From Bugula neritina (lineage: Eukaryota > Animalia > Bryozoa), in NCBI GenBank assembly GCA_964035545.1, contig OZ037768.1, forward strand, positions 16,909,875 through 16,973,874: a DNA stretch of 64,000 nucleotides, in the 5' to 3' direction. Within the stretch, counting starts at the first letter, position 1. Each line of letters begins with the position of its first letter. Below are positions 29,119-52,500 of this stretch, in pieces. Under the pieces are notes generated by a model. That model saw only the letters and a program-made list of their open reading frames with translations. It was not told where the DNA came from and did not search any database. Made by a program: the position numbers and the translations under genes.

Positions 29119-32100
29119 CTATGGTCGATTAAATTGTTCATTAGCAGTCTGTGCAGCCATAGACGAGACAACTCCTAAGCCCATGCCTCTATGAGTGTGA
29201 GTGGTTATTCTAGCAAATGCATATTCCTGATCTAATTTATTGAAAAGTTCATTTTGTTTTTGCTTCTGTTCTTCTGACATATCTGTAATTTTCACTTCAC
29301 CCTTGATTCCCATTAGTTTACGATATTTCTCATCAGCAACAACTTCTGTCCCCTACAGTAAGTAGCACAGAAATACATTGTAATGCAAGCCTTATACAGT
29401 AAATATTAAACACAATCTAAAACGTGTGGCAGGTCATGAGACGAGGACATAACCCCTTTGTCTATTTCATTTGCAGGGACCATAAACATTTTTCAAGTTC
29501 AACACCTCCACAAAATCAACCAACATTAGCTTATTGCAGCGATGAGACTTCGAAATCTTGTTGAATATATTACAAAATACCACCTTAGTCCCCCCCCACT
29601 TAGCCTATCCTGTATTGCTCAGTTGCAAACACTACCAAATGATGTTCATGAGCTCTGCTCTATTTCCACTTACACAAGTTGTAATCTATGCTTAAAAGAA
29701 TGAATCATGACATGTTGAAACAAATGAATAAATATATCTTCACAAGTTCCTAATACTAAAGTAAACTAATCACAAACCTAGCTAGTGTCACATTGTATAA
29801 CATACTACATATATTGGTGCTAACCTGAAACTTCTGTAAGCTCTGCTCTGTGTTTTGTGACGCTTTGCTCCACAATAGTTTCCTCTTCTGTTGCTGCTCG
29901 GCAAACTTCAATGGATTTATTGCTGCCTGGTTATAGAATTTAGGAACTTCAACACCGGTAAGTTCTTGAGCTTTTGCGTGCATTGCTGCCATTGTCTGCA
30001 ACAAGGCTTGCTGTGGAGTGGCTGAAACACAAATATACACATATTTCAATAACGAACTTCTACTGCACACATGTAATATATACATATATTGACATGACAT
30101 TGGTTGGGGGGTCTCGGCGTTGAGATGATATTTATACAAGTTCTGTACTCAGTCACCCCAACTCTGTGCTGCTGCTAGCAATATTTTAAGACTGAACCAA
30201 CTGCATTGAAGGCTGAATACGAAGTGTGTGAGCTACTTAGTCACCTTGACCTTTCCCAGCCATGGCATCTTTAGCAGCTTGCTGTAATTCTCGTTTCATG
30301 CGAGTCTTGAAGTCTTCTGTTTTAGGTGCGGTGGAGCCTTTAGTGGGCACAACAGTGTACTGATTTTTCTTATAGAATCTCCGCCTTTCCCTGCTGCTGG
30401 ATCGTCTGCGTGATCGCCTGTGTCTGCCGTCTAGATAAATAACAATACAGTCATATCAGGTACAGACTATTGCCGATGTGTGGCTCTGCGATAAGAAGAC
30501 AATTTGTTGAGCAGAGTTGTCCCATGCAAGTGTAATGACTTACGGCGGTCACTGCTTCTTCTGTGCCGGGGTGACCTTGACCTGTGACTGGATCTTCTGT
30601 GTCGTGAACCTGAAAAATAATTCCTCTTTTACTCTTTTACATAACAGGCTAGGAATTACTCTATTATGTATTTATGTACGAAGTTCTTACTTAAATAAAA
30701 ACCGCAGCATAGCTAAGTGCCTTCAGAACACAAATGATATATTAATGGCACTACACAAAACACCGTGGCACTACTCGTACCTGATCGTCTGTGTCGGCGA
30801 CTACCGTGACGAGATCTTGAACTCGGTCTCTTCCTTCTATGGCGACGACTACGCGACCTTGATCTAGATCGGCGTGACCTTGAACGAGATCTATGTGACC
30901 TTGAGTGTCTAGATCGAGAGGCCGAGCCAGATCTTCTACGTGAAGGAGAAGCTGATTTCTCGTCATGCTGCTCTTCCTCTATTTTGTCTTCACTCGGAGA
31001 TATTTGATCTACAGACATCAAAGGCACTGATAAGTGACATTCGAATTCATCTTCAACAACAAACCAACCTTCAAAACTCGGACTTATAGTTTTTGTAACT
31101 CATACAGACCTGTTTTGTTATTAGTGCCCGAGGGACTGGAGTCCTTCTCTATACCAACACTATTAGGACGAGACCCAGTGGAATGATCAGTTTCACTGCC
31201 AGATTCAGATGCACTGTGCTCAGAGTCTGAATGAGACTCGTCCTTGTTTTGATCAGAATGTTCTGATACTTCACCAGCTTCTTCATAAGCTGCTTGGGCC
31301 GTTTTCTCTAAAAATTCTTCCAGATGTTTTTCCATATCTTGAGATGATGCTGCAGTTGCTACAAATAATATGTATATAATAAAACCAGTTAATAAAATAT
31401 AGACAACGTAAATAAAAACAGAACATTTTTGTCTATAGCTGCGATTAGTTAGATTTCGGGTACTGCGGCTAATAAATATATGTAAAAAATATATCTTATA
31501 TCAGATACAACATGAGTTGAAATTTATAAGTAAAGCTAGAATTCTCCAAATTTAAAAATCCTACACACAATAAAAAAGAATGAACAGCTAGTAAATCAAG
31601 TACCGTCTGATTGGTTAGCAGAGAGATAGGAAAGATATGCATAAGGATTGTAAACTGTTGAAGAACTGTTTGGAACGGAGGTGCTAGCGGAAGTTTCCAG
31701 ATTTGGTGCAGCTGATGATTCTGTGGTAACGACAACATCCTCATTGATCTTGTCATCTGTATCATTCTTCCCAGCCAACATTTTCTCAAAGTTTGCCCAC
31801 TCTGACTCTAGATTCTCCATCGTGCTTGCAGCTGCATCAGATGTCTACAGAATACAAAATAAATCCACTTTGTTAGGAGGTTTTCAACCATCACCATTAG
31901 AAAATAAGCATATTGGGACATCAAGTAATTAATACATAAAAATGTATTTTCACTGACTACCAACTGATCAATGATTAGATAGAGTATTATAATAAGCATT
32001 CACCCTGCAACCTTAACCAGGACATGCAGCTGGAAATTTGTAAATGCTTTGATACTGACATAATAGTAAGTAGACTGCTAGCAAATACTCTTTGAAACTA

Positions 32101-34245
32101 AATACAGAGTACAACCACAGCTAATTAACATTTTCTAAATCTTATCTACGAAATTCCCATCTTCTGAGACTTCTTGCCTACTGTTTTTCCATTCTTGTAG
32201 AAAGCTTCTGTCATACTTACGACTGCCCAATATCTCTTGAATTGCATGTGATGCCACAGGAAATGCCCAAGTCGTCGTAGTCATAATAGGACACTTTATA
32301 ATTTAAAGTAAAAAACATGCTATATTATTTTGTATAAGTGGTGTCAAATCAAGAAATTGGGTATAGAATATCTGATAATTGCTCATTTACCAACTAATAT
32401 TTTAGGTAACAAATAATTTGCTTTGCACTTTACTAGTGGAGTAACTGAGTCAAACACTGAACACAGTAAAGATACAAAGAACCACATCAGCCTGACAGTG
32501 AAAGAGAAATTTCTATGATGGCAATGCCCAAGCCTTAACTGTAGAGCTCAAAAACCAGCAGTGGTTGACTTCAAAATGAGTCAGACATCGGCAAACTTTG
32601 AACAAAAGTGTTTCATCAATTTACCCTCCTTAAAATCCTAGATACTCACTCCGTATCCAAACGGCTTTTGTTGGGGATGCTCCTCCCACATTTCTTTCAC
32701 CACTGAGTCAACTCTTTTTGCATTTTTTATCAAATAAAGTTAAAAGTAAATGTTAATAATTATATGTATAATATCACACAATGGAAGTCAAGATGTTATA
32801 AGCAACTCCCATAAGACTAGTTTTGGCAGCAATTATCAGTGACTTTTTGGGGACGATTGTATGAAGTGAAAAACAAAAAACAAACTATGCTACAAGAATA
32901 ACCAACGCCTAAATTTTTAGGCAATAATATAACTGAAAATAACATATTTATACATATTTTTCAATTAAAGTTTGATATTTATGTTTAAAATTATGTTGCA
33001 CATTAAAAATCAAATAAGGATAGAATAGGCTAACAATATAGTCACTTGGTTTCTAATTTTAAAGGCTATATAACTATCTATTTCACTAGAAAATTATTTA
33101 GAGCTTAAGGTAAACTTAAAATGTTTCTGGGTTGCTAGAAGTAAAACTATTAAATCCAAACCAATATTAGCAAACACCATAATTGCTAATAGTAATAGCA
33201 TTACTTACAACAAAACAGGACTATAGCCCTTTAAGTAATAGGGAAGGTGTAACTCATACTCACAAAGCAACTATTCTTTACTGATTTAGAATATAACAAT
33301 ATGAGTGATAATCATGACCTCTAGTTTTAGCAGATTCCACAGTTATCAACATGAGCTTCTTTAATTTAAAATGTAAAATAAAAAATTAAACTTAAATACC
33401 AAATTCTTTCTGTAATGTTAAATAACACTTAAAATTAAAGTTAATTGCTATACTAATAGTAACAGTAATTGAGTAATACTTAGAGTTGGAGTCAGTCTTA
33501 TAGTTGATCGAATACATGTAATTACAGTTACAGCCATACCAACACTAACAGTAGCTCCAACTGTGCAGTATAACTACAACTATAACTATAGGTATAAGTG
33601 TAACTTCACTGTAACTATTAGTATTAGTATTACTATTACACTTACAGTATTAGATCTAGTATCAAAGATAAATTTAAATTACGTCAATTTTAAAATAATT
33701 AAACTTGAACAACTAGGATGAAAGTTTATCAATTATCAATATCTGATAAGTATGACTGTAACAATCAATAAAAATTAAATTATATTTATTATTAAACTTG
33801 ATAATTATAAATCGTTATTGTTAATATACTTATAATATAATATTAATGATAACATTTAATTTCATTTTCACAATTTAAATTTTATAAATTAGAATAAAAA
33901 TTCAAGATGAAAACCAAGTGCAGTATGAATATCAATATGAACATCATCAATTAAATAATAATTATAATAATCAATATCATAACCATAATCATAATGATAA
34001 TGCCTAATTCAGTAATGAGTAATTGTAAATAAACTTGAAAATAAAAGCCAATTCACCTTTGGTTGACTTTGAGACTCAGTCATGGCGTTAGAAAGCGAAG
34101 CGTTACTGTTGTCATGATCATCAGCATCATCACCATGATTTTTAGTTGTACTGTCAGTGCCTTCGGCTTCAAAACCGATTTTAATTTTATCGTCACCTTT
34201 CTCCTCATCCTCATATTCACTGTCATACTTGACGAGTTTCTCCAT
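29119..34245 (-). CDS. RSRC2: Arginine/serine-rich coiled-coil protein 2 with an acidic N-terminal region (multi-exon; first coding exon 34245-34057)
   Basis: RS repeats (30779-31008); ELTGVEVPKFYNQAAINPLKFAEQQQKRKLLWSK; C-terminal LMGIKG...LFNKLDQEYAFARITTHTHRGMGLG (RSRC2/SMAP motif). The upstream acidic exons (34245-34057, 31845-31602, ~31358-31110) join by GT-AG introns. Confidence 0.88.
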
Positions 34246-34521
34246 TTCAATTTGACGATAACACGTGGCAGTAAAGTTTTCAAAAGTGAAGAGCTTCGAA
34301 TCTGAACCTATTAACAAAACAGTGATCTTGGTAATATTATTTATGATGATTTTAAAAACGTATTGTAGCTGCAAGGGTAGCGTAGCAAATATGGCGACGA
34401 ACGATTTGTGCTGTTGACCAATACGCAGTTTGCAGTATTGTTTACGTATACCAACGAAGGTTGGTTTTTATTAAAATGCTACATTGGCGCAACCTAGTAA
34501 TTCGCCGTGTTCCTGTTAAAG
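34246..34521. promoter_or_regulatory. Putative bidirectional promoter for RSRC2 and TSEN54
   Basis: The two start codons are only 276 bp apart, head to head. The interval is CpG-richer than its flanks and contains ATGGCG (YY1-like) motifs and a CCAAT. Confidence 0.6.
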
Positions 34522-37500
34522 ATGGCGTCTCCCGTACACAGTCGCTCTCACTCTGACTCTGCCTTATCCAGGTAATTAAGAATTTAATAGATATAAGATT
34601 TTATTTTGTTTCGTTGAAATTTAATACAGCAAAGTTACCCGTTGCATGATTTATAACAGATGTAAGATAAAATTGAAATAGTTGGTAGAAAAGTTTAAAT
34701 TAACATAATATTAAGATTTACTAAAAGTAAAACTAAAAGTAAATTTGCATAATCATGATGATTACGATAATTCATAATTGTAATAAATTTAAAATTGAAT
34801 TTAATACTAATTAAAATTTAATTTAATCATTAAATTAATCAATATCATAATGATTAATAATCACTAAAAAGCATGATACTGTTATGTTTTCCAGATTTAG
34901 GGTTGATGTGCTATCCAGAGAGTCTATTTATTTACTATAGAACTGCACCAGGATAAGTCGAGTGAACGAGTATATTTTACACACAATTATACATTACAAA
35001 AACGATACATTATTTCCAAACAAGGTACACATCTAATCTATTTCACACTCTAGCTTCGACTGAGTTAGCAGCGGGAAACTACAATTGCTGCTAACTATCA
35101 ACTACGCTAATTGGCTATCCATTGTTCCGGGTCAATCGCGCGACCCCACATGTTGTGCTGCTGGTAGTTCCACGAACCACCACACCGCCCCCACCAGCAG
35201 AAAGCCATCTTTCTGATATATATAAAAAAAACATTCAATAGTAATTGCATACATCAGTGGACAAAAATGATACATAATATACAGGAAGAGACATAATAAT
35301 AGACAGAGTCATTATAACGATCCGTTGCATACAAATGGCCAGCTGTAGATAGACGAGGAATACTAGCTAGCTGTGGTATTAGACAAGGAATAACCTGTCT
35401 AGCAGTTAAGCATTTGCACGATCTTGGTTCCTCACAAGATGTGAAGTTGCGGAGTATTCTGGGTAGCCTAACTAGAGTCCTTGTTGGGCACGCCTGTGCT
35501 TGGCTTGGCATGTACGCAGTTTCCGTTTCATACGGCATACGGATCCCTTTAGCTGGAAGAGTCCTGTTGTAGTGTTAAGTAGATCTGGTGCCAGCTGGGT
35601 GAACTCTTCTTGTAATCGTAGGAGGCGTTCTTCTACTGTAGCCAGGCGTACTGGGTCTGGGGACGGTGTCCGTCTGCGGCGCAAGGGTGGACTGGGGGAC
35701 CTGGTTCGTCTCTTCGCTGGGGTAGGGGAGATCTCTCCTTCTTCTGGATATGTAGTTTCCTCGGGGGTGTATGTAATTTGAGGGCGGTCAGACACCAACG
35801 GGGATTGTTGGCGGGCGTTGTCTAACACACGTTGGAACCCCGAGGACAGAACGGCTAATAGCATGGCCTTCTTCACCAGAGGTCGTATAAGTGTGAGGAA
35901 CTCCGGGTACAGCTTAGCGTCGACCACATAGTTTTCTCCAGGGAAACAGCCCGCCGCTCTGTGTCTGGTGACGGGGTAGGGATACACATCATTATACCCG
36001 CAGGGGCAGAATGTTAGTAGGAGATGAGCATTGACGTGTAGTTTAAGGGAACGGTGAGAGGCGCAATCTTCACCACAGATCTGGCATCTCGTCCGTCCTC
36101 TGGACCCCCAGGCTGTTTCTATTTCTTCTTCTGTTTGTGGAGACACCCACCGCCAGCGGCGGCGTAGTGGCTCAGGCCTGTCACCACTAGCATACTCCTC
36201 CGGATACGGAGCGGGAAGTGTTCTATCCCGTACCCTGGTTGTAGCGGGTCGAGTGTAATCTGAAAAAGTTTCAACAGTGTTAATACAGTACACTGCAGTG
36301 TCGTCAGCTTGAGCAGCTTGGCAACTCCTAATTCAGTTACCTCGTAGAGATTAATGGTAGTGAATAGTCAGATAGAACACGTATTGCAATGAGATTATAA
36401 AAATCTCTAAGTCAAACTGAGTTCTTACTACGGTATTTCACTAACCTATCTCCAGCTCGATTGACTCAGTGGGTCAGAGCTGAGCGATGCAATCTAGTTT
36501 CGTATTAAGATATAGTTAACTCACCCCACGATCTGTTGTCGTAAGACATACTGAATGTGTGAAATGGTTTGAACTACTGCTTAGAAACACGTCTACTCCT
36601 GACTGCATCAGCGTATGAAAAGATCGAGCAACGTGGTTGGGGTGCGTGATTAAGACTTTGTGCACCCGGCGGATGAATTTTGTTTCTATTTCCGCCGATA
36701 CAAAAGTTGATATTTCCGTGGTGTTGACAACTCCCACATTTGCTCGATTCTTTTCTCGTACGGTTTTCCCCTAGACTTTCATGTGTGCCGCTTTTAACGC
36801 AGTCACATACGAAGTCCTTCAAGTATGCGGGGGGTTGCCTCGTACGCTGTCCCCTTTCTAGGGGGGGTGACACGCTTGCCGGTTCGTTAGTAGGGGCCTC
36901 TAATGGCGTCTCTACTTCACCGTTAGTGGTCACCTCTTCTTGTTCTCCGGATGGAGCCCCTCCCTCCGTGGGGGTTTGCACTTCCGGAACCGGCTCGGTT
37001 TCTGGAAGTGATGGAATTAGACTTGGCGGTGGCGGACACGCTTCTGTTGACAAAAGCTGCCGCTCCTCCCTCACCAAGTTTTCTTCCCGCGGTATGACCA
37101 CTTCGTATTCAGGTCCATGCCGCCGTCGCCCGCGCGTTGTTGTTTGCCTCCTGGGCTCTAACAACGGGGGGGGGCTTCTCCCACTCCGCCGGGGCTAGCC
37201 CAATACGGTTTCAAGCGAGACTCATTCTGGATAGACACCTGTCCTGAGCGCTCAATCTTGTACGTATGATTATGCATAGCCTCGACGACCACGTAGGGGC
37301 CTACGAACTTAGGCTTCAGCTTATCAGCCTGTCCGCGGCGCCTACGGTAATTGACCATCCACACCTTATCTCCCCTTTGATAGAGAGGTGGTTCATCGGA
37401 ATCTTCGTGCCGCACCTTCCACTGCTGTTGGCGCAGTATATCGTGTGCGGCCTTCATCCGTTCCACTAGTTCACTGGCATACTCGTGTACTGAGTTATCT

Positions 37501-40500
37501 TGCTCTGGAACGTGATAGGTGAGATGGTCAGGGACACGAGTCTCTCTCCCGAGCATCAAGAGGTTTGGGGTCTCACCAGTACTGGTGTGTGGGGTGCTAC
37601 GGTATGCACGCATGACTTGCGGCAACACCGTATCCCATTCCTCTTGACCTCGTCCAAGGAGGAGACTCCGGAGTGCATTACCTAGCATCCGGTTGTTGCG
37701 TTCCACCACCCCGTTACCTTGAGGGTGGTAGGGGGTGGTCCTGCTCTGATTTACTCCCCAGAGGCGGCAAAGGTCGCTCATCAGTTGAGACTGGAATTGA
37801 GCGCCTTGATCAGAGTGTATCTGTTCGGGAAGCCCAAAATAACAGAATACATGTTGGTCTAGCGCCCTGGCCACTGTTGGGGCTGATGCATCTGGAATAG
37901 CCAGAGCATCCGCCCACCTAGTAAAGTGGTCGGTTAGTACTAGGATCCAATTATTTTCTCTGGGGGTCAGGGGCATGGGTCCGACCAGGTCTACAGCGAC
38001 TACTTGCCAGGGCCTACCAGCATATAGCCTCCGCCGTCCTGCTTCACCAGGGGGGCGGCTATGCTTACTGGCCTGGCAGATCTCACACTGTTTGACTCTG
38101 AGCCGGACGTCACGCTCCATCTGCGGCCAATACCACCGGAGTCGTAATTTGGATATCACTCGCTTGACCCCTGCGTGGGCCTGCTTGTGTGTATCCCAAA
38201 TCAACTCACGGCGGATGGCTGTGGGACAGACTACCCTCTTCCTTTCCGGGTGTCTGCCGCTGGCAGCTAGAGAGATGGTTAGCAACCCATCCTGCCCGAT
38301 CCGCAGCGAGTCCCAACGCTGACAGTATAGCCGGAACTCGGCGCATCCCTGTCGTATGCGTTCCTCGCTGGGTCGTCGCCCTTCCCTTTTGGCCCGGTAT
38401 ATGTCTGCCACGACTCCAGGCAGCTCTTCTTGGAGCTTCTTCAGCTCTCGAACATTACCGGCCAGTACAGGGTTGGCGCGGAGGTTTTGTACATCCTCCG
38501 GGGACTCATCAACTCTTTGCCTGAGTTGACCTTGATCCCAGTCAAACGGTGCTCCGTGATGAGCCAGCGTCTCCAACTCGCATCGTGGGGGACCTCCATC
38601 CCTCCTCTCGATGTTGAGACACTGTTTGCAACCTCCGTCAGGTCGGCGACTCAACCCATCCGCATTGCTGTGTCTCTTGCCCGGTCGATGTTCGATCCGG
38701 TATGAGAATTCAGCTAGGATTTCGAGCCACCGGGCGACCTGACTAGAGGGCTCTGCTCTCCTGCACAACCAGATCAGCGAGGCATGATCCGTACGCAGCC
38801 GGAACTTCCTGCCATATAGGTATGGTCTGAAGTGCTTCACTGACTTGATTACTGCCAGCAGCTCCTTGCGGGTAGTGCAGTAATTTCGTTCAGCGGGAGA
38901 GAGAGACTTGCTGTAGTAGGCTACTACTATCTCTCTGCCTTCCTGCACTTGTGACAGCACAGCGCCAACATTCTGGTCACTGGCGTCCGTGTCTAGGATG
39001 TACTCCAGAGTGGGGTCTGGGTAGGCCAAGATGGGCGCCGTTAGGAGGCAGCCCTTGAGGCGGTCGAACGCTTCTTGTTCGACTGGAGTCCACTGCCACG
39101 TCACTCCCTTTGCGGTGAGCCGGTTTAACGGCTGGGCTATGCCCGCAAAGTCTGGTATGTATTGCCTGTAATACCCTACCAGCCCCAAGAAAGCCCGGAG
39201 TCCGGTCAAGTCTTGGGGGGTGACCCAGTCTTCTACTGCCCGTACCTTTTCGGGATCCGTTGCCACGCCGTTTCGACCGACAACGTGCCCCAGGTACTTG
39301 ACCTCCGGCTGCAACAGAGCGCACTTGGAAGGTTTGAGCTTAAGACCGGCACCTCGGAGTCTCTCGAAAAAACCTCCTGCAGACGACTGACATGTGTCTC
39401 GAAGTCTGGAGAGATTACGATGACATCATCGAGGTAGACCAGCAGTGTCTTCCAATGGAGTCCGCTAAGGACTTGTTCCATCAGCCTCTGGAAGGTGGCT
39501 GGGGCGGAGGTTAACCCGAAGGGCAGCACCTTCCACTTCCACAAACCGTCCCGTGTGATAAACGCCGCTTTCTCTTGGGCGTCGGGACTCAGAGGAACCT
39601 GCCAATAGCCGCTTAGCAAGTCTAACGTACTGAAGTACTTGCTGCCGGCTAGGGCGTCCAATGACTCGTCAATACGAGGTAGAGGGTAGGCGTCCTGTAT
39701 GGTTACGCTATTGAGTTTGCGGTAGTCCACACAGAACCGCCAACTGCCGTCTTTCTTCCGGACCAGTACGACTGGCGAGCTCCACGCACTATGGGCGGGC
39801 TCTATCAGTCCCCGGTCCAGAAGATCCCGTACTTGTCGGCTAACCTCCTTCTCTTTCTCCGGCCCCAGCCTGCGTGTGGGCTGCCGGACAGGGACTGTCC
39901 CTGCAGTCAGCGGTATTTCGTGTCTGACAATTCCAGTCAGTCCCACGTCATGCTCTCCGCTGCTGAACACATCACCGTAGTCGCGTAGTAACTTAGCCAT
40001 AGCTTGGCGTTCTTTGTTACTCGCGCAGCCGCCACTGGCTGTTTTGTATAACTCCCGGAGATGTGTTGGGACGGCCCCCCGTCCCTGAATAGGGCACTGA
40101 GGGGGTGCCTCCGTCGCATCACCCAGCGACGGGCCTACGTCTCCCTCCTGAACAGAGTGAAAACGGCCCAGCATCGACCCAGCCGGGAGCTTGATAGGCT
40201 CGGTAAAGGGGTTGACACACTGCACTAAGATCTCCCCTTGCTCAGTCAGCTGATTCAGACTGCTGGCAAGTTGGATCTTTTCGTGCGCGCCTTCAACCAC
40301 CCCGGGTCCAGAGATCCGGCTACTATTCACCCTGCAGTGAATGGTAGCCCGGGAGCGGCCTGGTATGATACGGTTGCGTACCACTTGCACACCTCCCACT
40401 AAAGGGCGACCGAACTTGTCGACGCAGGCGAGTTCCCGCCCGGACATCATCATTGCAGATCTGCTAAAATCTATGTGACATCCGTGCCGTTTAAGGAACG

Positions 40501-43500
40501 GCATCCCGAGGATAGCATCCTCCTTGAGCTGACTGACGATGAACGTCTCTCGGATCGTTTGATCACGGACTCGCCCGTCAGCTCAATTATACCATAGAAG
40601 GGAAGGCACGACCCGTCAGCGAGGGTGCCGTATTCCCCTTCGTATGCTTCCATCTCGCCCCTGACCCTAGTACTGAGGGTGTCGAAGAGTTGGCGGCTTA
40701 AGAGGTTTTTGGTACAGCCCGAATCAATGAGGAAAGTAACAGCTTTGCCTTCCAGTTTACCGGGCAAGAAATAGCTGTTCCCATGGGGCTGCACCTGAAC
40801 TCTCCCTTCAGGCCTTACTCTCGCAGGGAGTACCTCCCTCGCTTTGGGTCGCGAAGGAGGTCTCTTAGGGCGGTGGTAGGTAGGCCTCGGGGGTGCCGAG
40901 GCTAGATTCTCAGCTACCTTTGTGGGCTCCCATCCAGATTCTTGGACTTGTAGCCCTGTGAATCTGTTGTGAAGGGGCATAGAAAAAGCAGCCGCGGGGC
41001 GAAGCCCCTTGCTGGTCCGTCGTGGCTGTTGCCACTGTTGGTTGCCAGTACGCGGTACCCGTCTGGGTGACCTGCGTTTCTTCTTCCCTGGAGGTTTCAT
41101 CGTCGGCCCGCGGAAGGTGGGAACATCTGCGGGCCGCGGTAGTTTAACCCCTGATTTAGGAAGGGACAATATCGGCGGAAATGTCCTTGATTTCCGCACT
41201 CCCAGCAAAAACTGACTGTTTCTCCCTGTGGCGGCGCCGATGGCCGCATGGGCTCAGGGGCGGTACTCACTGGGTTTTGTGGTGTCAGTGTTGCTATCAG
41301 CTTGGCTAGCATGTCCGTCAGTTGAGTGACTTTTGATGCCGTCGCCAACTGGGACACGGCAGCCGCGGCGGGGGTTTCCTCCCCTTGTCCCGCGGCCGTG
41401 TCTGCGCGGTCTATCTCCACTTGGCGGGAGCTTCCGCGACTTTTATGCATTTGATTAGCTAGGAGGTAAGCTTCCCCCTCAGTCAGAGCATCTTCAACGG
41501 TGGTGACTCCCCTAGCTAGAAACTGGTGGTGGAGACCCAGATCGTCGACAGATGCTATGAAAGCGTCGAGGGTGTACCTCTCGCGGTTGACTGGGGGCAA
41601 GTCGCTGTACGCGATCTGTGCCAGCTTCATGACCGCGGCGGCATGCTCCCGCAGCGGGGTGCGGGGATCACGCCGCAACCTCTGCAATCGGGCCCTGGCA
41701 TCTGTAGCAGAGAGGCCAAAGCGGGCCCGCAGAGAAGCAAAGATATTATCAATGTCTACACCCAGCCCGTAGGGCTTGGCTTTGTCCATCAATGCCATTC
41801 TAAGCTTCAGCAAGGCCACCCTAGGGGGCCACTGAGCGACGTCCATTACGTCGCTAAACTCTTGGATAAATTGTTCCACCTCCTCTTCACCCGTGAAGGT
41901 GGGCGCCTTTAACCTGTAGCGGTCTTCAGCTAGTTCTCGCGGAACCCTTCGCTCTTCTACTACATGGTTAACAGGCATTGTCTCTACAGCATTGTCTCTA
42001 CGCTCACCTTCGATTGCCGGTGGTTGAGTTCCAGCATTTTCAGTCTCCATCTTGGATGCACTATCCCACTGCTGCCACCACTGTTATGTTTTCCAGATTT
42101 AGGGTTGATGTGCTATCCAGAGAGTCTATTTATTTACTATAGAACTGCACCAGGATAAGTCGAGTGAACGAGTATATTTTACACACAATTATACATTACA
42201 AAAACGATACATTATTTCCAAACAAGTTACACATCTAATCTATTTCACACTCTAGCTTCGACTGAGTTAGCAGCGGGAAACTACAATTGCTGCTAACTAT
42301 CAACTACGCTAATTGGCTATCCATTGTTCCGGGTCAATCGCGCGACCCCACATGTTGTGCTGCTGGTAGTTCCACGAACCACCACAATACAATGTTTCCA
42401 CAATCACAATGACAATGACATGATGATGATGATGATGAAGGGGACAGAACAAATTGACAGCAACCTCTCGAAACCATTTGACAAACGAAGTGGCGTCAAA
42501 CAAGGCTGCGTCCTGGCACCAACACTCTTTCGTATCTTCTTTGCCATGCTCTCAAAGCACGCTTTCGGTACTTCACCAGAAAGGGTCTACCTACTAACAA
42601 GATCTGACGGTAAACTCTTTAACCTGGACTGACTTAGCCCAAACAAAAGTACGTCAAGTTGTCATCAGAGACATGCTGTTTGCTGATGATGCTGCTGTCG
42701 TATCTCATGCAACAAGAACTGCAGACGCTCATTAATACATTTTCCCACGCTTGCTAAGTCTTTGGGTTGCCCATCAGCTTGAAAAAACCAATGGTGTAGG
42801 ACAAGACACATTGGCACCACCTGCCATTGCATTAGGCAACCTCGAGCTAGATGTCATCAAGGAGTTTACTTACCTCAGCTCCATTATCGCCGGAAACTTC
42901 TTCATTGACAGTGAGATCAGCAAAAGGATTGGAAAAGCAGCAACAACCATGGCCCATTTTGCAAAATGCTTCTGGAAAAACACCAAGCTGACTGTGTCCA
43001 CAAAGATGACAGTTTGTGATGCCTGTGTTGTCAGCACCTTGTTTTATGGCAGTGAAACTTGGACCACATATGCCAGTCAAGAGAAGAAGCTTAACACTTT
43101 CCACATCCGTAGCATTTGTCACATCCTGGAAATCACATGGCATGACTGAGTGATCAATGCAGAAGTTCTTTTGCAAGGTAGTCTTTCTAGCGTGTTTGCC
43201 CTGCTCATGCAACGCAGACTGCGCTGGTTTGATCATGTGCGATGCATGGACGAAGGGCGCATTCCCAAAGACATTCTTTATAGCGAACTAACCAGCGGTA
43301 GCCAGAGTCGGTAGCGACCTTGGCTGCACTACAAAAATGTCTGCAAGAGGAATATGACAGCTATCGGCATAGAGACAGCTTCCTGTGAGAATGTCGCATT
43401 CGATTGCACGAGTTGAAGGAGCAAACTAAAATACCATCTCACAGCGGGGGAAAAAACTTCTCAGTGCAGCTATTGAAAAGACGGCACACAGGAGGGCTTA

Positions 43501-49552: not shown

Positions 49553-52500
49553 TCAGTTGTCTATTGAGCCTTTCAGATGCCATACACCTGCTCGAAATAC
49601 ACAGTAGCCCTGAAAAGAAATATTAAGACTTTTTACACAAATATTGAATATTGAGTGATAAATTTGCTCTATGAAATCATAAACAAAAAATACAAGATAT
49701 TCTGTCAATTGGATAAAAAGTAAATATCCTTAATTACTTTAGAGTACATTTAATTGTATATATTATAACCTTATTGTCTCTTATCACTGCTGCAGGTTTG
49801 CCTGCACAGTAAATCAAAGTTCTAAAAGAAACTAAATATCACCAGTAGTAAATTAAGATATGCAGGCAGTCACAAGATGACAGGGAAGCTTAAGTCGACC
49901 ATGTTGCACAAATTGACGAAATATTTGCTAATGGAATATTTCACTAACCTTCAGGATATGTTTGACAGTCTCCTCGGCTATGGCTATATTATGGCGTTCT
50001 AGTTCTTGCTTCAACACGTTGCTTCGTAGTCTACTACTTTGCTGCATTAATGATATAAATATTTTTCTGACTGGTGCTAACCCGTCATCAGTGTCTGCCA
50101 GTAAGTAGAATGTACTAGTACTGCCAGGAGGCTTCTACAAAACAGTCAACTTTAAACACCATCAGTGATACTGCAAAATATTTTTTCTGAAATGAAAATC
50201 ATTATGATTATAAAATAGTAAGTGTACAGAAACAATATTATATTACATTATTCTTCATAGGTCTTGAAATACCCTGGTTATAAATTTCTTATAAAAATTT
50301 GTTGATATAAAGTTTCTTTTGCACAGGGAAGTATATAAAAACTCATGAAAGAAGCAACTAGCATAGGATAAAGATGAACTTTGGCTCAGAGTAGACAATT
50401 TCTATCAAATCCAGTTTCTGAGTGCTGCAAGTTGTTTTCTTAATTTTGATACAATACAATCATACACAAATAAAACGAATTCAACTTGATACCATAATTA
50501 TTAAAACAAAGATATGCATAATAGAATTTTGTTGATTTTGTTGCATCTTCAATTTTTTGAACTGAACCTTCATGAGTGACGATTGAGATTTTGTAAATCT
50601 GGTGGTTTATTGCCACCTAGAACACTTTTATATCATTAGGAAGCTTGGAAACATTTATGATTTAAGCAAACATATTTTGTAAGCTCTAGAAATAACACAT
50701 TACAAAATATAAATGTCCAAAATAGGTATCCATTCGGTTTAATAATGTATTCAAATGATGCTCTTTTCAGCCAAAGCATGAAATGTATTGGTCTAATTTA
50801 CATGGCAGGTGTGCAAACTAGTTTTGAGAAGTCTTGAACTTTCTAATGCCACGAAAAAGGCCATTTGCCAATAATTTTGAAGAAAATCAGTTTCAATAGT
50901 CCAAGTTCTTTTAGAATTCAAGTATATATGTTTGCCTCCGTATACGTATAATGGAATATCCCTCACCATGTAGTGCACTTTGACAGCTCCACATGTGAGG
51001 ATGGCTTTTTCTAGTACGGTATCAGATACTCCAGTAGCAAGAACGTGTCCAGGTGGGCATTGAGCTAGTTTTGTCTGATACATATGCCTCATATCACTCA
51101 TGTTCAAAACAGAGTTCACAAGCAGCTTGTCTCTTAGGAGAGCGGATAACTCTTGAACAAGAGTATCAGTATCAGCACTTTCATTCCTTTGACAAATAGA
51201 AATTTAATATTTACATCACCAAAGTGACTAAATAGTAGACTGTTCGACATTTACAGTTAATCTCCGATTTATTTATACACGTATTGCTGACTCACTTAAT
51301 TATAGATTCAGTTGAACTGCTTTTGATGTGCACATCGTTTGGGAATGCAAAGGCTGGTTTTGTTTGTTCAAGAGTTGGTGTCTTTTCACCGTCCGTGTCA
51401 CTCATATCAGAACGAGATTTCGACTTTGAGGAATTGCGCCTCCGTCTTGATTTGCTCATTTCTTTAAAGTTACAAAACCAAGCATGAAGTTGGATTTTTC
51501 AATGTTGAAAAGCACAGATTTAACAATACAATGATCAAATTTTCTCAGTGAATCAAACAGGCTAAGTGTAGGCTTAAATCCTCCAATTGCAAAACACTAA
51601 GATTTTAGCAAGAAAGAAATGATTACCTATTGGCTTCCCATCTCTAGTTAATTTGAAGTGCTTACAAAGCTGTTGGTATTTAGCATCCCACATCATTTGC
51701 TGTCTCTGCACTACATCTTTGTTCCTGTAAAGCATACTCAACATTTTACTTGACGGCTAAACCCACACTAAACTAAGTAGATACCCAACAAATCAGGCAG
51801 ACAGTACAGACTGGGTGACCCAAAAGTATTTATGCTCACCTGTTCACAAAATCAAAGTCATATTCTAAGTTAAACACCCATCCTTGCTTGACTCTGGGTC
51901 TGGCTATATGTGAGAGCATTTCTTTAAGTTCATCAGCCGGTATTTTTACTACACTAGATACTTCTTTTCTGATAAGTGACCGGGTTTGGGTGAATTTCCA
52001 CAGCTGTAACATGTATAACTTACAGGGCTAGAAATAACAAAACCATCAAGAAGACAGCAGTAGCCATAGAATGTAGCAAATTTCAAGCAATATAATATAA
52101 AGACGTTACCAAAGGCTTCAGCACTCTTCACTTGTGATCAGCATTGAATAAAGCAATAATCAAGTTGGCTGGTGTGATTCAAAACATATTATCAATTTGC
52201 ATTCATAAGTCTGTTTTTTATTCATATATTGTGCTACTTCTACTACTTCTATACAGAAATGTACAGCTATTTCTCAAATGAAAGAGGCAACTGATTTACA
52301 TTAGTATACACCTGTATCAATTTTTCTATATGAAGTTTTGTTAATGACAACGTCAGAACACTACAACGGCTACTACAAAATGTTACATCTGTGCATATAA
52401 AGATAATTGAGTGGCAAAATAACGTGGAAAATCTAAATCATATAGACAAATGAGACTCGCCAAGTATTGAGAGTATTTAGTTTCTACTCAATGAATGGTG

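Follow-up and report, generated by a model that had tools for sequence, protein, structure and literature searches.

A conserved zinc-finger gene behind pol in a bryozoan Ty3/Gypsy element: a likely spliced accessory gene and candidate regulator of the element

Results

The window, by which we mean the whole 64,000-nucleotide stretch of Bugula neritina DNA that was analysed, carries on its minus strand a retrotransposon with the following parts:

42386-34880, minus strand: complete Ty3/Gypsy element, with LTRs, primer binding site (PBS), polypurine tract (PPT) and target-site duplication all present
42387-42390 (beside the 5' LTR) and 34876-34879 (beside the 3' LTR): target-site duplication GTAT, 4 bp
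42082..42386, minus strand: 5' LTR, 305 bp, TG...CA
42063..42080, minus strand: PBS
41097..42050, minus strand: gag, 317 aa, one CCHC knuckle; ATG at 42050
36574..41253, minus strand: pol (protease, RT, RNase H, integrase), in four reading-frame pieces in the present copy
35185..35195, minus strand: PPT
34880..35184, minus strand: 3' LTR, 305 bp

This is a Ty3/Gypsy (Metaviridae) LTR retrotransposon with the pol order protease-RT-RNase H-integrase, and among solved structures its RT is nearest that of Ty3 (E 3e-39 to 5e-40), with retroviral RTs scoring far lower. The LTR pair shows 1 mismatch in 300 compared bases, in keeping with the description of the element as young in an earlier note on this DNA, and the PBS is of what we take to be the tRNA-Leu type. 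In the present copy pol changes frame near 40580, 39370 and 37165, which may reflect mutation or assembly error; the stop of the pol tail ends at 36574. AATAAA is absent between the LTRs, the element's only copies sitting inside them, so that an mRNA for the gene described below would end in the 3' LTR. In a DNA-like sequencing run (X2), 6119 contigs align to the element at a likeness of at least 85%, and many related copies must therefore be present there.

About 640 bp downstream of the end of the 3' LTR, and in the same orientation, lies what is likely the first coding exon (ATG near 34244) of a host gene. The exons (29756-34467, minus strand) resemble those of an Arg/Ser-rich coiled-coil gene, presumably RSRC2-like, and have no Pfam match. 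A truncated LINE-like RT fragment (42440-43500, plus strand; RVT_1 E 0.002), presumably of the RTE type, adjoins the 5' LTR beside a 3-base repeat. Host exons for an FAD-dependent oxidoreductase (PF01266) and for the RNA polymerase III subunit RPC5 (PF19725) lie at 164-601 and 50796-51203.

Downstream of pol is an open frame, ORF3, which the earlier note had described as a non-env accessory gene of a Gypsy element, reached by splicing from one of two phase-1 donors: (a) that of a micro-exon with its own start codon or (b) one lying 43 nt into gag. The 788-nt frame, its acceptor (ACTTTTTCAG/AT, the slash marking the splice point; first exon base 36259, phase 1) and both donors were reproduced in every coordinate and phase. 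The length of the frame exceeds chance, as none of 2000 base shuffles of the exon yielded 260 open codons. The features of the gene and its presumptive transcript are:

42008..42050, minus strand: start of the gag coding sequence (43 nt), which likely serves the ORF3 mRNA as its first coding exon
36590..36800, minus strand: candidate response element, a long predicted stem and multibranch loop at the end of pol, within the predicted intron
36525..36550, minus strand: micro-exon candidate; ATG at 36549, donor GGG/GTGAGT after 25 nt (36525, phase 1)
36260..36274, minus strand: splice acceptor tract, ending TTTTTCAG; relatives' read-through residues are FS/LS/LL, then D/G
35472..36259, minus strand: ORF3 exon, 788 nt including the stop, 261 codons; stop at 35474-35472
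35784..36188, minus strand: double zinc-finger domain, residues 24-158 (Trp helix, two fingers, VD strand, helices)
36024-36086, minus strand: C2H2 finger (finger 1)
35946-36008, minus strand: CxC-H-C finger (finger 2), C-x-C-x12-H-x4-C
35664..35714, minus strand: basic Ser-Pro-rich NLS-like stretch, subfamily-specific
35487..35648, minus strand: C-terminal coiled-coil helix with a basic end; 75%, the top conservation among close relatives

An env gene of the errantivirus type was considered and rejected. A Pfam search of ORF3 found no env family, and the most hydrophobic 19-mer (Kyte-Doolittle 1.51) sits inside the folded domain, which agrees with the earlier statement that no transmembrane segment is obvious.

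The likely route to ORF3 expression is a splice that uses the gag donor (b), GAAG/GTGAGC (last exon base 42008, phase 1). This is the best of four donor-like sites in the element, the micro-exon donor being another of the four, and its use would give a product of 276 aa, compared with 270 aa from the micro-exon start (a). The gag donor is supported by a single database protein, P0024, among 181 ORF3-family proteins checked. It starts MAEEGTELPIPRNE, identical at 13 of 14 residues to the Gag start of P0086, and then runs on as DHTRL, the ORF3 start, exactly at the predicted junction; both of its break points are codons predicted beforehand from the window sequence. Its source contig, at 5320 nt, exceeds the length expected of a spliced copy running from LTR to LTR (roughly 1.8 kb), so that P0024 may represent a retrotransposed spliced copy in genomic DNA. 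A chance deletion at the shared AG letters could also have produced it, provided that both sites were struck.

The relatives point to the same two sites. Gly/Ser-Glu stands at the donor position in 23 of the 24 Gag N-termini, short-leader subfamily included, while the rest of the leader varies; these 24 are the sequences that reach the N-terminus among 120 listed relatives, and they were read at the protein level with a loose pattern. Gene callers have read through the acceptor in 22 of 85 close ORF3 proteins, leaving FS, LS or LL before D/G, which fits a T-rich AG acceptor since such a translation is expected from read-through. It is from these relatives that the acceptor draws its support; by pyrimidine count (21 candidates listed) it is unremarkable. 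The exact P0024 junction and the Gag N-termini support the gag donor. The micro-exon start fared worse: its peptide occurs in none of the fetched proteins, and the sole hint for it is that P0026 begins Val-Ser about where the micro-exon donor lies. Inserted after the gag donor, the 26-nt micro-exon would shift the ORF3 frame and bring a stop after 46 codons; possibly, it is a poison exon. In an RNA run (X1), which holds 0.20 of the words and may have DNA in it, 21 contigs lie on the element and none crosses 36259. Among 50 contigs of X2 there is no loose end at 36259, and 15 of the 54 joints include no 42008/36259 junction.

A protein search gave 72 ORF3 relatives among 1452 candidates (44-99% identical), and 105 representatives passed E <= 0.001 in a full HMMER scan. 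Averaged over 31 close relatives (33 less the two nearest), identity to the window ORF3 reaches 0.75 for the coiled coil and 0.57 for the finger domain, as against 0.26 for the linker and 0.21 for the N-terminus, which 19 of the 31 rows cover. Of 66 aligned members, 63-66 retain each of the residues C58, C61, H74, H78, C84, C86 and H99; the last zinc ligand, C104, is present in 44 of 62 rows and W37 in 60 of 64. Because the ligands are kept across the 66 members, ORF3 has two zinc fingers rather than, as first described, a finger and a CPC..H..C cluster; the cluster is present, and is in fact the second finger (C84-x-C86-x12-H99-x4-C104). Two other motifs in that description hold in part. The R-rich SP repeats occur in the present copy and are subfamily-specific, since the RR..SP pattern matches just 5 of 33 close relatives, and the second Trp of RRRWRW is conserved (60 of 64 rows) while the remainder of the motif is not. 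In the region of the C-terminal leucine heptad, one long helix is predicted over residues 208-260.

A basic triple run follows the domain in 21 of 24 distant members chosen by eye, most of which have a heptad-like C-terminal stretch, and the domain architecture persists at about 30% identity. At the DNA level the sign of selection is weak: six of the 11 variants listed are synonymous, where 30% would be expected (P = 0.08, from few DNA rows). P0047 and the more distant P0214 fuse pol-tail sequence to ORF3 and therefore belong to elements. Many database copies of ORF3 are truncated or frameshifted. Judged from these alignments, the ORF3 gene is under protein-level constraint and is located in elements, and we consider it very probable that this is a working accessory gene, likely expressed by splicing. 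ORF3-encoding loci were confirmed in neither the viral contigs (8 pattern matches) nor the metagenome contigs (180) searched; the integrase and RT scans of viral contigs found no ORF3-bearing element, phages gave no ORF3-relative locus, and a weak search of proteins of 971-2770 aa found no fused form.

Residues 24-158 are modelled as one compact domain (pLDDT 94.6, pTM 0.87; 96-row alignment). The full-length model is poor (pLDDT 53), and the prediction of a two-copy ORF3 complex scored 0.06 (mark, 0.32). Foldseek returned no match for the domain in PDB or BFVD at E 0.001 (TM <= 0.33), and the best Z in a wide structure search of 48,161 chains was 3.6, the finger pair alone being matched to DNA-binding pairs; such lack of a clear fold match is not proof of a new fold. 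The pair (about residues 25-85) overlays those of Kaiso, SALL4, ZBTB38, CTCF and REF6 at an rmsd of 2.6-3.1 A over 50-57 residues (Z 2.7-3.6). The Pfam zf-C2H2 score (13.1 bits against a cut-off of 25.2), the linker of five hydrophobic residues and the C-x-C second finger speak against a classical C2H2 array; zf-C2H2_4 is touched at E <= 0.1 by 24 of 66 members. The fingers are wrapped in helices. At helix position 6, finger 1 mostly has a hydrophobic residue, while window-type finger 2 reads Y-P-Y-P, and by the helix numbering rule for DNA-reading fingers these residues are unlike those of the usual DNA readers. In distant members finger 2 reads Q-R-D-Y-V-L-R-H, with Asp and Arg at the usual DNA-contact places. 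The domain profile's best PDB sequence matches are C2H2 transcription factors (finger 1 only), and ESM Atlas gave only generic C2H2 or unnamed clusters. Two NES-like patterns both fall within the folded domain, and no exposed export signal is evident. The ORF3 family was not found in Pfam (at cut-off), PDB or the open literature searched (main texts); in PMC8556966 the words "zinc" and "ORF" do not occur.

The RNA of 36590-36800 has a predicted fold with z -4.09 (0 of 200 shuffles), the second best among 99 windows, with no match in Rfam. The fold is not unique in its stability, as a pol-internal window scores z -4.55. Strongly folding windows (z -4.55; -5.5 in the scan) lie within pol at 40200-40370 and at 40812-40961, the latter shortly downstream of the gag/pol overlap.

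The 117 loci found by RT scans share no more than 62% identity with the element's RT. The ORF3 profile found the domain in none of these 117, of which just 32 reach 1.5 kb past the integrase; the nearest RT locus (L009) is a decayed fragment. The element's primer-site type is shared with L002, L003 and L010, the last of which ends at pol. L002 and L003, whose RTs are 60-61% identical to the element's, carry a different post-pol ORF (L002:5912-6793 and L003:3419-4258), with C2HC and C2H2 fingers, an acidic linker and a conserved GVQTEP tail; the two are 31% identical to each other and each lies directly behind a TACTTTCAG acceptor. On the evidence of its sequence, this ORF is a second, unnamed accessory family. 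Homology of the window ORF3 to the L003 ORF beyond generic fingers was rejected (probability 0.9%). When 41 of these loci, all unnamed, were placed in a quick RT tree, the window element, L002 and L003 came together in a 12-row group with a support of 88, which is not strong. The accessory gene is patchy among relatives, since L081, L082 and L083 are complete related elements in which the LTR directly follows pol with no ORF between; the contigs of these three are filed as bacterial genomes and are likely host contamination. Long low-complexity post-pol ORFs were seen at L025:6136-7170, L045:7672-10710, L085:6894-10067, L007:5609-6193 and L023:4541-5269, all of them without the finger pattern searched for.

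Those ORF3 relatives that bear an organism name (30 proteins looked up) form three bryozoan clusters, each with a position of its own in a quick domain tree (48 rows). P0211, P0258, P0302 and P0303 are gene models of Watersipora subatra or Bugula neritina in which the domain occurs once or twice, and two bryozoan gene models share an extra N-terminal segment (E 2e-8). Such models are possibly domesticated or donor genes.

Discussion

The reading that we favor, while rating it somewhat short of an even chance, is that the spliced ORF3 product is a nuclear switch for the RNA of the element itself, after the manner of CERV (the regulator of the Caenorhabditis elegans element Cer1) or Rev. There is a strong indication that the LTR transcript would lose a 5.7-kb intron (42007-36260), joining 14 Gag residues to the ORF3 exon. 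The protein is predicted to combine a compact domain of two fingers with a basic, NLS-like stretch and with a coiled coil. As the earliest product, translated from the mRNA that is spliced by default, it might bind unspliced genomic RNA, with 36590-36800 as the candidate site, and oligomerise. Genomic RNA bound in this way could escape splicing or leave the nucleus, and Gag and Pol would then be made only when the state of the host cell permits. The packed fingers, the odd recognition helices and the stable intron fold lean toward an RNA role. The DNA-reader-like finger pair, the DNA-type finger 2 of distant members and the lack of an evident export signal count against it. Moreover, the intron alone needs no export factor, because errantiviruses splice env without, to our knowledge, any Rev.

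Alternatively, the product of the same splice could be a dimer that binds DNA and regulates the LTR of the element, as either a transactivator or an anti-silencing protein. This would account for the overlay of the fingers on the Kaiso, SALL4, ZBTB38, CTCF and REF6 pairs (2.6-3.1 A), the C2H2 transcription factors among the best PDB sequence matches (finger 1 only) and the Q-R-D-Y-V-L-R-H of the distant finger 2; in the unrelated ORF3 of L002 and L003 the tandem fingers are more canonical and the linker is acidic, and a boost to transcription would be a plainer benefit than export. However, the Z scores are low and Foldseek TM does not exceed 0.33, the Asp/Arg pattern is lost in window-type finger 2, and the window protein is without a clear acidic activation region. 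We rate such regulation at the DNA level only slightly below the RNA switch. It is unlikely, in our estimation, that ORF3 is instead a protein scaffold that uses its zinc domain to block piRNA or chromatin silencing or to tether the integration complex. The domain is indeed a compact globule and not beads on a string, its most conserved nonligand residues (W37, V112 and D113) are structural, and those distant members that have names are gene models from bryozoans, some of them carrying it twice; nevertheless, none of the analyses suggests a partner, and the basic surfaces and finger geometry suit nucleic-acid binding. That ORF3 is a mere passenger, a captured host exon in neutral drift with chance splice-like sites, is very improbable: the domain does occur in annotated W. 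subatra and B. neritina genes, many database copies are damaged, and X1 and X2 yield no junction reads (X1 contigs do not cross 36259), but conservation of the domain and coil far exceeds that of the linker among relatives only about 50% identical, the architecture is maintained at about 30% identity, P0024 has the predicted junction, and the bryozoan genes, at 30-36% identity, branch from the family tree in three separate places.

Whether ORF3 controls RNA in the way that a CERV/Rev-like switch would is directly testable, because the family is large, the domain model is confident, the junction is defined and there is a candidate RNA site. Few LTR retrotransposons have a known route by which unspliced RNA gets past nuclear retention and host silencing. 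In a wider sense, we would put at close to even the prospect that a broad invertebrate Gypsy group is "complex", having repeatedly gained spliced zinc-finger regulators behind pol that control its own RNA or LTR, with the domain also entering bryozoan host genes. ORF3 defines a zinc-finger domain that is missing from Pfam and present in bryozoan gene models.

In complex retroviruses (HIV Rev/Tat, HTLV Rex/Tax and foamy Tas), a spliced gene 3' of pol encodes a small basic nuclear regulator. The searches gave no sequence or fold match of ORF3 to these proteins, and its host element, in contrast to such viruses, has no env. Like the tandem C2H2 factors (Kaiso, SALL4, ZBTB38, CTCF and REF6), ORF3 has a C2H2 finger 1 and a finger pair that overlays theirs at about 3 A; unlike them, it lacks a TGEKP-type linker, and the pair is embedded in an unmatched domain of 125 residues. 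The third ORFs of bdelloid elements and errantiviruses, according to the available text of PMC5408684 and PMC13524379, also sit after pol, typically on a spliced message, and encode fusion glycoproteins or transmembrane, coiled-coil, GDSL esterase or DEDDy exonuclease proteins. The word "zinc" is absent from PMC5408684, as are "zinc finger" and "C2H2" from PMC13524379, and the window ORF3 differs from errantivirus env and the bdelloid ORF3s in having no transmembrane segment. The Drosophila MDG1 group has accessory non-env genes as well (sORF1 and sORF2, with a helix-turn-helix predicted for sORF1); unlike ORF3, these are short, upstream of gag and unspliced, and no zinc finger is reported for them in the text of PMC11952523 available to us.

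The earlier note had suggested that this may be a "complex" invertebrate Gypsy lineage. That idea was anticipated by Cer1 CERV of C. elegans, the one worked-out animal Gypsy case that we found. As far as the available text of PMC10309623 goes, CERV is spliced, shares its N-terminus with Gag, is required for the export of unspliced RNA, has a leucine zipper, a candidate NLS and a zinc-binding Cys finger/loop, and has no homologues outside nematodes. Non-env third ORFs (PMC5408684) and a spliced regulator in an invertebrate Gypsy element (PMC10309623) are known; what appears to be new, in that it was not found in Pfam, PDB or the open literature, is the present protein family, none of whose named members comes from a nematode. 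By the same partial account of CERV, the two proteins differ in build: CERV has 517 aa, five exons, a predicted C4 finger and a G-protein-like domain, whereas ORF3 has about 276 aa, two coding exons and C2H2 plus C2HC fingers. The export function of CERV has been demonstrated (PMC10309623), while the role that we propose for ORF3 is by analogy. Like CERV in that account, ORF3 is likely spliced and would then share its start with Gag; with its NLS-like stretch, predicted coiled coil and predicted zinc binding, it is a second, unrelated candidate for a spliced regulator in an animal Gypsy element.
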